A DNA stretch of 64,000 nt from Sphyrna mokarran (Eukaryota). The DNA lies in contig JAGIQG010000012.1 in the NCBI GenBank assembly GCA_024679065.1, positions 87,172,001-87,236,000 on the forward strand, read 5' to 3'. How positions within the stretch are numbered: the stretch's first letter is position 1; each line of letters begins with the position of its first letter. This document shows positions 11,427 to 58,181 of this stretch, in pieces. The notes beneath the pieces were generated by a model. It did no database searches, was not told where the DNA came from, and was given only the letters and a program-made list of their open reading frames with translations. A program made the translations under genes and the position numbers.

Positions 11427-11773
11427 CAATGACATTGAGCTGACTCCCTGCTCCATAGATGTCGCTCCACACACTGCATCTGTACACAGCTGTATCATTG
11501 TGGTCACATTCACAATGGTCAGAATGTAGCTGTTGCTGCTGACATTCCGGGAAGGCTGGAAACGGTGGTGGGAATCCCGGGACTTGGTAACGGTGCCATT
11601 CACAAACTGGCTGATCAGCCACTCACTGTGGTAGCCAGCTCTCTGGTAATGCCAGTGGACATCAGTGTCAATCACACTGGCATTGTACATGGCACATTGT
11701 AAGTCGACAGTCTGACCCTCTGTCACCTTGCTGACTGTCGGATACTGCATGAGGACTGGGTCAGACAATGGAG
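11427..11773 (-). CDS. Gene A V2 exon, V-J Ig domain with a 1-nt frameshift (PLSDPVLMQYP...LQC...VHWHYQ...NVT/NDTAVYRCSVWSDIYGAGSQLNVI)
   Basis: 347 nt (348 would be in frame). The domain is split between ORFs 11418-11963 and 11332-11622, with the shift at about 11502-11503. AG/GTAAGT sites are intact. Confidence 0.9.
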
Positions 11774-13204
11774 CTGTTAATATTGAGAAAGAAAAATCAG
11801 AGAATTCAAAATGCAATATTTTAGAAATTTTCTGGTTACAACAATGATTTGCAGAGACTTCTCTCATTCTCCCAACATGGAAATTAATGTTTGCAATGAG
11901 GGAGGGAATGAGGGGACAAAAGGGGACCTGCTGAATGTTGTAGAATTTGCTGATATTATCCATTCAGTGCACATTCCCACGCACAGAAAACAAACTATTG
12001 AACAAATAAACTTCACAATCTTCACAGCTGATTTTTGGAAGAACTCAAATTATTATTTAAAAAGTTGAATGAAAGATGAAAATAAAGGTATAAAGTTTAA
12101 AATTTAGTAATTTCAGTGTGTTCACATACGGGCTGATTTACTGCTGCTAATCCTCTCCTTTACCCCATCCTATCAATCTGGCCTGGATTTTCCCCTTCTG
12201 GGATTGTTGGGAATTGGTAAAAGAGACACAGGGATCCGGAACTTATCGACTTGTCCTGTCCCCTACAGCGATCTGTGCAAATTCATTCCAAGATCCCACT
12301 CTTCTTTATAACTTTCAAGCCTCCTCCATGCCCCATCACATCCCTCCAGATCCTCATGCTTTCTGCAACTCCAGGCCCTTTCCATTGTCCCATCCATGCT
12401 CCACACTTATTCTTCCAGTATTGTCCACACAGAGAAGCAATGTGCTACAAGCACGTCTGGGAAATTATTGAAATGTTTCTCAAACTGACACAATGAGCAA
12501 AGAGGCTTTGAAACTCTCCATCAGAGAAAAAAAAACTATTCATCTTCCAACCTCAGAAAAGTGTGAAATAAACATTGGCATTCTGGTGTGTCAATGAGTG
12601 AAATTTTATTCTTTTTTCATCTCATAACTATGTTCAAATATATAAACAGGCATTGAAAAACCATAAAGAAACAAACTTCCTGAAACTTCCGAAATGCCTG
12701 CCAGAAATGGGAGCACTTTGCTTCAAACCATGTGAATACTGTCTAATTGACTAGATACATACACAGTTTGGAACTCAGCCAAGCATTCATAATAAGCCCA
12801 TCTGTTAACTCCATAAACAGTAGCATATTGAACAGAAACACAGAGAGTTGTTTCTGGAGATGAAATGGCCTGACAAGTGCCTCCCAAATCTAAAGAGAGA
12901 ATTTGTTTATGTTCCTTCTACAGATCCCAGCCTCAAGCATTATCTTTCGCAGGATGTGGATATTGTCGCCTCAGCTAACGTATGTTCCTGGTCCCTAAGG
13001 CTCTCCCTATTCCTGATACCCAGCAGTGTGCCAAGCTCAAAACCTCACCCATTCTTCCTCCCTGATCACAGCCTCCAGTGCTTCCCTGCTCATTTCTCAT
13101 ATCTTACATCATATTCCAAGAAACCCCTAATTCCCCGAATCCCACCCTGTTGACTGCTTTCCTCACCTTTTCCTCTCCATCCGCGGTCATACCTGGCACA
13201 AAGA

Positions 13205-14215
13205 AAGATGGTTGGAGGTCAATCATCTCAGCTCCAGGACATCACTGCAGGATTTCCTCAGGGGAGTGTCCTCGGCCCAACCATCTTCAGCTGCTTCATC
13301 AATGACCTTCCCTCCGTCATAAGGTCAGGAGTGGGAATGTTCATTAATGATTGGACCATTCATTACTCCTCCATTACTGAAGAAGCCTGTCCCTGCACAC
13401 AGCAAAACCTGGACAACATTCAGACTTGGGCTGGTATGTGGAAGGGAACATTTCCCCACACAAGTGCCAGGCAATCAACATCTCCGACAACAAAGGATCT
13501 AACCATCATGCCTTGATATTCAATGGCATTTCCATCACTGAGTCCTCCACTGTCAACATCCTGGGGGTTACCATTGACCAGAAACTGAACTGGACCAGCC
13601 CTGTAAAAACTATGGTTACAAGAGCAGGTCAGAGACTGGGAAACTGCAGAGGGTAACTCACCTCCTGACTCCCCAAAGCCTGTCCACCACCTACAAGGCA
13701 CAAGTCAGGAATGTAATGGAATAATCTCCACTTGCCTGGATGAGTGCAGCTCCAATAACACTCAAGAAGCTTGACACCATCCAGAACAAAGCCAAAGTGC
13801 TTGACTGGGACACCACCCATCACATTAAACATTCTTTCCCACCACCATGGACACACAGTGACAGGCGTGTGTACCATCTACAAGATACACTGCAGGAACT
13901 CACCAAGGTTCCTTTAACAGAACCTTCTAAACCCATAACCTCTACCATTTCTGCGCTCTGTGACTCTACAACTTGATGATTTTGACTCTAAAAGGACAAG
14001 GGCAGGAGGCACATGGGGAACATCATCACCTGGAGGCTTCTCTCCGAGTCACTCACAATCCTGACTTGGAAATATATCACCGTTCCTTTACTGTCTCTGG
14101 GTCAGAATCCTGGAATTTCCAATCCTGACTGCACTGTGGATGTACCTACACCACATGGGCTGTAACAGATCAAGAGGCTGTTTCACCACCACCTTCTGAA
14201 GGGTAACTAGGGATG
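13205..14215 (+). mobile_element. Old degraded CR1/L2-group LINE RT fragment, predating the A/B duplication (copy at about 51485-52495)
   Basis: [20 protein letters not shown] motif in ORFs 13208 and 51127. Confidence 0.85.
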
Positions 14216-14549
14216 GACCCTAACCAGTAACACCCTCCAAGAATGAATATAAAACAGAAACAGCTGGAGACAGCACTCTGACAAAAAGCTGAGTAAACAA
14301 AGGAGAGGGAGAAAGATTAGAAACAAACAGAAACAGAGAAACAGAGAAAATGTCAAAGAATTGAAGACTGAGAAATCAGGAGCGATGCACAATTTTTATT
14401 CTTGGATAAAAGTGCATGAGATCACCCAGTCTATTTTTCTAACGTGTTCCCTTTAACCCAGGGGTTTGTGATATTTCTCACACACTCACTTCCCACACAG
14501 TTACAAGTGGTGATTCCTTCAGGCAGATATTTCTGTAAACTGGACTTAC

Positions 14550-57500: not shown

Positions 57501-57550
57501 TGGGCCGAAGGGCCTGTTTGTGCTGTATTGTTCTATGTTCTATGTTCTAT
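54540..57550 (+). mobile_element. Near-complete CR1 ORF2 (APE endonuclease + RT) with stops and frameshifts
   Basis: ORFs 54504, 54966, 56191, 56615 and 57028; GDFNFP, FADD; tail at about 57530-57550. Same subfamily as 16613-18997. Confidence 0.95.
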
Positions 57551-57827
57551 AATGATTTTTCAATCAATTCCCTACAAAATGCTATCTGTTTTACTGCTTG
57601 TTTTCTTGGAGTGACTGAATTCTCTGTGAGATTTTTTTGTATCGTTTACACTTACTCATTCGTTCAATGAAAATCCCCCAGTTGGGTTTGACCCAGATTT
57701 AACTCTATCGTGTGATTAAAATGTTCACCCAGCATCATTAGCTTAAAAAGTAATGTTTTATCATATTTATCGAAACATCAGATGATTGTGTGGTAAAATT
57801 TGGAATAAAAGCAGAGGAAATACTCAC

Positions 57828-58181
57828 TGGTCACATTCAGCCAGGTTCCGCTTCCAAAGATACTTCCCCAAATCCCACACATATAGACCTCAGAGTCACT
57901 GAGCTGCACATCTCTGATGGTCAGAATGTAATTGTTATTGGCAATATCTCTGAAAAGCTGAAATCGCTCTGAGAATCCTTCTGAGCGGTAAACTTTGCCA
58001 TTTATATAATGACTCAGTAATATTTTTTTCTTATTTTGTGGATGGTACCATTGTACATCAAATTTCTCCACTTTGTTGTTTATGTTGCTGCTCTGCAAAT
58101 TACACCAAAACTTCACCGCTTCACCCTCACGCACTTTCACAAGCCCAGGTGACTGGACAAGAATTGTCTTTGCCTCGTGAC
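57828..58181 (-). CDS. Gene B V0 exon, V-J Ig domain (HEAKTILVQSP...FWC...VQWYH...DSEVYMCGIWGSIFGSGTWLNVT)
   Basis: 354 nt, phase 1-1, tttacAG/GTGAGT. Perfect J motif FGSGTxLxV. ORF 57778-58140. Confidence 0.95.

Follow-up and report, generated by a model that had tools for sequence, protein, structure and literature searches.

Fused VJ exons in a hammerhead shark: likely members of a paired-receptor family with kinship to sigma-2 light chains

A 64-kb stretch of the genome of the hammerhead Sphyrna mokarran (G000:C224:87172001-87236000, hereafter the window, with positions counted from its first letter) carries four variable (V) exons of immunoglobulin (Ig) type in which a V segment and a J-like end are fused. 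Such a locus raises the question of whether its exons were never split by RAG, or whether they were split and later rejoined in the germline. An unsplit VJ exon is not by itself proof of a pre-RAG relic. We consider it probable, though far from certain, that the four exons encode fixed VJ domains and belong to two tandem, likely damaged members of a paired-receptor family that descends from a germline-joined VJ exon of the light chain sigma-2. If so, a light-chain exon that had been rearranged became permanent in the germline and came to serve as the unit from which a large family of innate paired receptors was built, whose members are candidates for poorly known natural killer or myeloid checkpoint receptors of cartilaginous fish. 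We found no earlier description of this family in the literature, a result that is provisional as several papers that could mention it were not covered; we provisionally regard the family as unnamed and undescribed.

Fused exons, their flanks and their family

All four V exons lie on the minus strand, with the ends quoted in an earlier note on this DNA. Each begins at a phase-1 acceptor, covers strands A-G and closes with a phase-1 donor, the borders being AG/GT. Each matched the Pfam V-set domain (E 4e-8 to 1e-17). The earlier note had held that V and J share one exon with a constant, short junction. This was confirmed: the third complementarity-determining region (CDR3-IMGT) comprises 6 residues in all four exons, and the junction motif YxCxxW-x4-GxG[ST]xLxV occurred four times in the window and not once in 100 shuffles. 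The CxxW within it, which had been called invariant, proved to be common only; it was present in 234 of 243 parsed domains elsewhere, and neighbouring copies read CSVR, CLVH or CSVH.

The absence of a heptamer or nonamer from the VJ junction also held when exons and flanks were scanned for recombination signal sequences (RSSs). As a control, 15 of 15 split Ig or T-cell receptor (TCR) V exons from the same genome carried an RSS with 0-4 mismatches at most 100 nt from Cys104. All 17 parsed family exons showed at least 6 mismatches, a count that excludes 6 of the 23 family loci as unparsed, among them VA and VC of the window (Table 1). When the scan covered 500 nt around each of the four window exons, the best RSS-like matches had 4-6 mismatches and never stood at the junction; the three with 4 mismatches had 11-nt spacers and were located either in CDR2 or in the intron, some 410 nt from its start. 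Across the whole window there were 3 matches at up to 3 mismatches, compared with 2.8 in shuffles, and 46 at up to 4 mismatches, an excess over the 17.2 in shuffles. The claim that no constant (C) domain exon precedes the transmembrane (TM) exon stood as well: the best tblastn E for a C1 exon was 0.056 for the window and 0.09 for the surrounding cluster (464 kb), compared with 1e-44 in a control region.

At least 100 elasmobranch proteins, all from sharks and rays and under inconsistent automatic names, were matched by the window exon VB at 43-89% identity. Multi-V TM members are also present in Callorhinchus, and no member from outside cartilaginous fish appeared among the named top matches. 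On the favoured reading the family would have been retained for more than 400 million years. CDR3 has 6 residues in 241 of 263 domains and 8 or 9 in two, with 20 unparsed. Each V and its J share a phase-1/phase-1 exon, and one to five such exons are chained before an uncharged TM. The further elasmobranch domains are of V type with two cysteines, and no six-cysteine I domain was seen among them.

We surveyed the 72 gene models (isoforms included) that have both a TM and a tail and that carry 1-5 V domains each. None has a charged TM. Immunoreceptor tyrosine-based inhibitory motif (ITIM) patterns occur in 50, switch motifs (ITSM) in 29 and tyrosines with the spacing of activation motifs (ITAM; YxxL-x7-YxxL) in 19, the ITIM pattern overlapping the second half of the ITAM. 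At the level of motifs, related ectodomains are attached to opposite tails. These sequences suggest that the family likely works as a paired innate receptor system, inhibitory and activating, comparable to NITR, SIRP or PRARP. ITIM, ITSM and ITAM signal through SHP-type phosphatases or Syk-type kinases, and by analogy the ITIM/ITSM or ITAM-like tails are predicted to recruit SHP or Syk. Three Callorhinchus proteins (P0247, P0248 and P0134) have very short tails and extra cysteines at 105 and 118 (CCVWGDVCG), possibly forming a CDR3-closing or interchain disulfide.

The range of the family bears on what the earlier note had concluded. Its picture of membrane-bound V chains stands, but the four exons form two units rather than one, and V-V-TM is one of several architectures. 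Its old, non-rearranging lineage is supported by the fixed CDR3 and by the presence of the family in sharks, rays and Callorhinchus; a pre-RAG origin is not established, the closest relative being sigma-2. The same distribution across sharks, rays and Callorhinchus agrees with its view that recent germline joining is disfavoured.

Kinship with sigma-2 light chains

A profile of 11 family exons was searched against 1.84 billion proteins, and the best 150 of 3688 matches were examined by per-domain score. Among these, the closest non-family domains were sigma-2-type VJ-C1 light chains (94-120 bits), followed by a group of unsplit VJ-C1 genes (71-79 bits) and other V classes at 61 bits or less. 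One sigma-2-type match shares a 90% cluster with a horn shark record named Igsigma-2, and the top match of that chain in the hammerhead genome was a family exon. Sequence searches of the PDB gave no ranking of families, since antibody constructs with several domains dominated the matches, and the ESM Atlas returned only generic V-set receptor clusters.

Separate hammerhead contigs carry genes that we take, from familiar motifs and context, to be of Ig heavy chain (IgH)/TCR type (C994), of kappa type together with NCR3-like genes (C1548) and of lambda type (C772). VB was 45% identical to sigma-2, 37% to kappa, 30-34% to TCR, 30% to heavy-chain V (VH) and 27% to NCR3-like domains; for the family as a whole, identity to sigma-2, its closest V domain, was 45-48%. 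Family and sigma-2 (also sigma-cart, sigma-prime, type I or NS5) share a CDR1 of 8, a W41-C104 span of 58, an RFQPSRDTS-type D/E strand and CxxW, and the fused VJ recalls that of skate, gar, coelacanth and turtle sigma-2. Types B, C and D group with sigma-2 and have its CDR1 of 8 and CDR2 of 7 (loop lengths from PMC5985310); type A has a CDR1 of 12. The differences are equally clear. Sigma-2 is a secreted chain with one VJ spliced to one C1 exon, whereas the family has tandem V domains, a TM and a signalling tail, no C exon and no octamer, a fixed 6-residue CDR3, eroded pairing residues and another locus.

Sigma-2 exists in germline-joined form in skates and in split form in horn shark, and germline-joined Ig genes are ascribed to RAG action in germ cells, according to PMC5192425. 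Joined sigma-2 is further reported in gar, coelacanth and turtles (PMC5985310); our own search for bony-vertebrate sigma-2 retrieved coelacanth and lungfish only.

One hammerhead gene deserves separate mention. L075/L091 (G000:C994:512227-516129, on the IgH/TCR contig) is a single-copy leader-VJ-C1 gene with an unsplit VJ and no canonical octamer. It is 63-79% identical in four other sharks and groups with sigma-2, and similar VJ-C chains occur in coelacanth and lungfish. The gene fits the shape of the predicted two-domain VJ-C1 precursor and is probably the 'IgL sigma prime' listed in table S1 of PMC12227049. Its identification as UrIg2 was considered and rejected, the V sequence being different. 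Two short-pattern searches for UrIg and UrIg2 in the hammerhead genome found nothing, and neither is in the trees.

Trees were built on about 103 alignment columns. L090 was omitted as unparsed, and further rows were left out of the AU (approximately unbiased) tests of the 61-row tree (2 long-branch family rows), of the mixture-model tree and its AU test (11) and of the tree with more outgroups and its AU test (17). Family and sigma-2-like sequences formed a clade in the free trees of 61 rows (99/87) and of 50 rows under the mixture model (98/96), with coelacanth and lungfish chains outside it (96/83 and 89/84). In the 61-row tree the sister of the family was the unsplit VJ-C1 gene on the IgH/TCR contig, and a single long domain from Callorhinchus was placed within sigma-2. 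The family still lay inside the Ig/TCR V radiation (98/92) when more outgroups were added. Light-chain monophyly without the family was rejected (AU, p 0.033 and 0.021), and grouping with TCRgamma-like genes was borderline (p 0.06). Grouping with joined lambda-type genes was also tried and was rejected (p 0.016). The earlier note had named nesting within a recent clade of rearranging light-chain or TCR V genes as the result that would undo its reading; the best trees come close to this, but the nesting is ancient, not recent.

On these sequences, kinship with sigma-2 is well supported; its direction, derived or ancestral, is not settled by the trees. Three points make us favour derivation from sigma-2. 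Had a diversifying family arisen before Ig and TCR split, it would not be expected to stand nearer to shark sigma-2 (47%) than the coelacanth relative of that chain does (42%); sigma-2 is prone to germline joining, ascribed to RAG in germ cells; and no member from outside cartilaginous fish appeared among the matches.

The hammerhead genome also holds remnants of sigma-2 itself. The only canonical sigma-2-type C exons found in it, L175 (C1018:4680-5007) and L177 (C1027:1406699-1407026), both contain frameshifts, and scoring 150 candidates from the genome yielded no canonical sigma-2 V. About 18 kb from a broken sigma-2 C exon lies L179 (C1027:1388098-1388760), a VJ-C1 gene with a very short V-C intron, and 140 kb away is an unsplit VJ exon, L214 (C1027:1248105-1248413). 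Both are possibly PRARP-like; L214 took a long branch apart from the family in the tree with extra outgroups, which contained no named PRARP sequence.

Pairing face, origin and rival explanations

An AlphaFold model of VB (predicted local distance difference test score 93.3) shows a V-set fold. Fold searches returned generic VH, light-chain V (VL) and TCR matches, many of them tied (top Z 19.1, root-mean-square deviation 1.9, 112 aligned), with VpreBJ and VL among the top Foldseek matches; NITR, NKp30 and UrIg2 did not figure in the results, which excludes nothing. Of the residues that pair with VH, P50 is found in 0 of 206 family domains, F118 in 3 and Q44, often E or K instead, in 80, compared with P50 in 6 of 7 and Q44 in 7 of 7 sigma-2 sequences. 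W52 is kept in 152 and Y103 in 149 of the 206. Linkers between domains span 5-8 residues (119 junctions), and strand G contains sequons. From the lost pairing residues and the short linkers we infer that the tandem domains are unpaired, and judged by sequence an Fv-like V-V pairing is unlikely.

VB and its copy VB' have introns that are 96% identical, and they differ mainly in CDR1, strands C/C' and CDR2; CDR1 to CDR2 holds 17.5 replacement versus 1.5 silent differences, and CDR3 holds none. Among 10 type-B copies, whose pairs are not independent, the proportion of replacement differences (pN) exceeded that of silent ones (pS) in CDR1, C/C', CDR2 and CDR3, but not in framework 1 or J. The excess on CDR1, C/C' and CDR2 points to ligand binding on the front face. 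Upstream of leaders, the Ig octamer was present in none of 8 family genes versus 6 of 6 controls, which were lambda-type genes and not sigma-2. The missing octamer suggests release from B-cell control; its absence from the unsplit VJ-C1 gene and from three VH loci makes the test weak.

A history that would account for these features begins in an early chondrichthyan, with RAG acting in the germline to join the V and J of a sigma-2 gene. The joined exon would have lost its C exon and its B-cell octamer promoter, relocated to the GULO-CHRNA-PTK2-family block and acquired TM and tyrosine-motif exons. Expansion by tandem duplication and exon shuffling would have followed, before the chimaera-shark split. 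The domains may form a rod of unpaired monomers, in which a ligand on the surface of cells would be bound by what was once the VH-pairing face (CDR1, C/C', CDR2); this face would diversify while CDR3 stays frozen. Ligand binding would then recruit SHP-type phosphatases, in ITIM/ITSM members, or Syk-type kinases, in ITAM-like members, on leukocytes.

Several results weigh against this reading. The alignment is short, and with 11 more rows (outgroups) the node joining family and sigma-2 drops to 71/71. A family placed outside all Ig/TCR V was not rejected in three AU tests (p 0.307, 0.584 and 0.291), and under the mixture model, when NCR3 was the sole outgroup, this tree scored 2.03 log units better. 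Nor was monophyly of the sigma-2-like sequences to the exclusion of the family rejected (p 0.382). Single-domain relatives scoring below 86 bits (PRARP, NITR) could not appear among the best 150 of the 3688 matches, and VH has the same loop lengths as the family. Among the nearest relatives are unsplit VJ-C1 genes in sharks, coelacanth and lungfish, possibly primitively unsplit. Finally, synonymous sites behind the pN excess between VB and VB' are few, and a patch of gene conversion could explain it. Part of this evidence would suit a pre-RAG relic, which we hold to be unlikely but credible: the family and the IgH-linked unsplit VJ-C1 gene would descend from a never-split VJ exon, and sigma-2 would be the rearranging lineage nearest to it. 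The receptors would in that case, too, signal by way of ITIM/ITSM/ITAM tails. Equally doubtful is the corollary that 'joined' sigma-2 was never split and that the family displays the innate role of the precursor that RAG split. The family-outside tree, never rejected and in one test the best, fits this history, as does the sister position of a single-copy unsplit gene conserved in four other sharks, with similar chains in coelacanth and lungfish. So do the joined sigma-2 of gar, coelacanth and turtles reported in PMC5985310, the J end of the family (GNGTQLNVT, GSGTWLNVT), which is nearer to coelacanth and lungfish ends than to shark sigma-2, and the retention by sharks of other unsplit relics, UrIg and UrIg2 (PMC12227049). 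Yet sigma-2 must then branch before TCR and IgH separated, and a diversifying family should be further from sigma-2 than TCR (30-34%), not at 45-48%. Two of three free trees give the sigma-2 clade at 99/87 and 98/96, the family lacks a C1 domain and, among the named top matches, members outside cartilaginous fish, and its cluster is on neither the IgH/TCR nor the NCR3-like contig. A relic would bear directly on the gene that RAG invaded, and judged by sequence the family would then come nearer to that gene than the candidates UrIg2 or NKp30; under either history, whether sigma-2 was split or joined becomes testable.

We regard it as improbable that one of the innate families already known to bear a J (NITR, PRARP or NCR3, in one of its subtypes) has its cartilaginous-fish branch here, the sigma-2 likeness being retained ancestry or convergence. 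PRARP, reported by Fu et al. in 2019, reportedly combines a J-like, non-rearranging V with an ITIM/ITSM tail on a membrane-bound chain, with C1 in its non-avian members; it is a gene pair with one V and usually C1, in contrast to a multigene, multi-V family without C. The NITR plan of ray-finned fish is similar in its germline V with a J-like GxG end, ITIM tails, clustered paired genes, rapid turnover and species-specific expansion (PMC2442602). Neither a C1 domain nor the six-cysteine I-type second domain of NITRs was seen in the family; as single-V NITRs exist, the latter excludes the two-domain form only. The family also has up to five V domains, and where a charged TM might be expected in activating forms (0 of 72 here), these appear to have an ITAM-like motif of their own. 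The NCR3-like cluster lies elsewhere in the genome, at 28-30% identity and in its own clade, and the V sequences of UrIg and UrIg2 differ throughout (supplement of PMC12227049). It is very improbable that the domains pair in Fv style with VH or a sister receptor and so act as an antigen-receptor chain of surrogate or invariant kind. The light-chain-like fold, with VpreBJ and VL among the top Foldseek matches, and the mostly kept W52 and Y103 would agree with it; P50 and F118 are lost, Q44 is often E or K, the linkers are too short for an intrachain Fv, strand G has sequons, the octamer is missing and diversification falls on the pairing face. We give almost no credence to the view that the exons are ordinary V segments that rearrange, or Ig orphons joined in the germline in recent times. 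Germline-joined Ig genes do exist in sharks, such as the lambda-type examples on C772, and the window units are damaged, but RSS and C exon are lacking, TM and tyrosine-motif exons are present, the family is conserved from rays to chimaera, and grouping with joined lambda-type genes was rejected.

Other receptors share some features with the family. UrIg and UrIg2 are likewise elasmobranch single-exon VJ genes with a split leader, and differ by 3-11 C1 domains, G-strand cysteines, a longer CDR3 and a place in the major histocompatibility or IgH/TCR complex, none of which the family has (PMC12227049). Shark NCR3/NKp30 genes, a label we presume for the hammerhead loci, are clustered, non-rearranging VJ exons too, with a separate locus and clade, 23-31% identity and other loop lengths. 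Two such NCR3/NKp30-like fused VJ clusters with at least 18 copies lie at C1548:96.3-96.9 Mb and 107.45-107.70 Mb (L103-L114, L221-L223). Another fused VJ exon, L216 (C1:23833872-23834192), presumably CD8beta-like, fell inside the Ig/TCR radiation in the tree with more outgroups. SIRP and CD33-related Siglec receptors also set a V-set ligand domain with a diversifying front face on a stalk, with ITIM and ITSM in the tail; in the family the stalk consists of further VJ domains, not C1/C2.

The two units, their cluster and neighbours

Self-comparison of the window revealed a segmental duplicate pair that resolves the four exons into two tandem units (Table 1). Unit 1 reads VA-VB-TM-cyt1-cyt2 and unit 2 leader-VB'-VC-TM-cyt2-last exon. 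A leader exon for VA was looked for in unit 1 and not found.

Table 1. Exons of the receptor family in the window
Feature	Position	Strand	Remarks
VA, type-A fused VJ exon (CGIWGSIFGSGT), unit 1 domain 1	57828..58181	-	CDR1 12, CDR3 6
VB, type-B fused VJ exon, unit 1 domain 2	52830..53174	-	CDR1 8, CDR3 6
TM exon, unit 1	44993..45143	-	uncharged; helix contains proline
Cytoplasmic exon 1, unit 1	44224..44267	-	Cys where paralogue has Tyr (PVYATV)
Cytoplasmic exon 2, unit 1	42638..42681	-	not followed by a last exon of its own
Leader exon, unit 2	21334..21385	-	split leader, phase 1; Ig octamer not found within 400 nt upstream
VB', type-B fused VJ exon, unit 2 domain 1 (N-terminal)	14550..14894	-	CDR3 6
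VC, type-C fused VJ exon, unit 2	11427..11773	-	347 nt; frameshift near 11501; CDR3 6
TM exon, unit 2	11110..11260	-	uncharged
Cytoplasmic exon 2, unit 2	7890..7933	-	tail out of frame
Last exon, unit 2	6789..6911	-	CSYVEL (ITIM-like) and TEYSTV (ITSM)
Last exon, third convergent family gene	461..579	+	ITIM LFYADL and ITSM TVYAAV

Both units are likely damaged, and probably neither of these copies is functional. Unit 2 lacks cytoplasmic exon 1, with LINE-type (long interspersed nuclear element) sequence in its place. Given this loss and the VC frameshift, unit 2 cannot yield a full receptor, even with VC skipped. Overlapping read contigs each show one gap at the VC frameshift and may be paralogue-derived; three in-frame VC copies exist elsewhere in the cluster. 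In one contig from another organism, guessed to be RNA, a VB'-like exon is joined end to end with a VC-like exon.

The last exon of unit 2 is the only one found for the minus-strand units, and unit 1 would read into it in frame. Across 6789-45143 and G000:C224:87255000-87295000 we observed three minus-strand units with TM and short tail exons, several tandem leaders and a single last ITIM/ITSM exon. It is possible that the minus-strand units share a constant tail through alternative splicing. The convergent third gene has its VA-VB-VC-TM exons 5-25 kb upstream of the window.

In all, 23 family V exons lie at 87.11-87.96 Mb of C224, in both orientations and with repeated leader, TM and tail exons. 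A gulonolactone-oxidase-type gene comes first, then a nicotinic receptor alpha-2/4-type gene and the first sub-cluster; a PTK2-family gene, the second sub-cluster and a TRIM gene follow. This order matches GULO-CHRNA2-PTK2B-TRIM35 of human 8p21. LINE-type retrotransposon sequence fills much of the window (16965-19031, 43345-43953, 49268-51196, 54966-57465 and others), and a 608-nt piece of this type splits the duplicated segment of unit 1.

The cluster is flanked by a 789-codon single-exon open reading frame (ORF) without a Pfam match and adjacent coiled-coil ORFs (L155:3165-5531 on the minus strand, L157 and L070). One ORF of this set is fused to a family gene in the Heterodontus model P0060, which suggests conserved adjacency. 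Three type-B copies (L002, L003 and L006) have Ser in place of Cys23 and are still in frame. In L005 (G000:C224:87960917-87964186) a type-B V exon continues into an open frame of 1165 codons whose tandem repeats abound in N-x-T sequons and probably form a stalk of mucin-like kind, and the Chiloscyllium protein P0097 resembles this repeat-bearing type.

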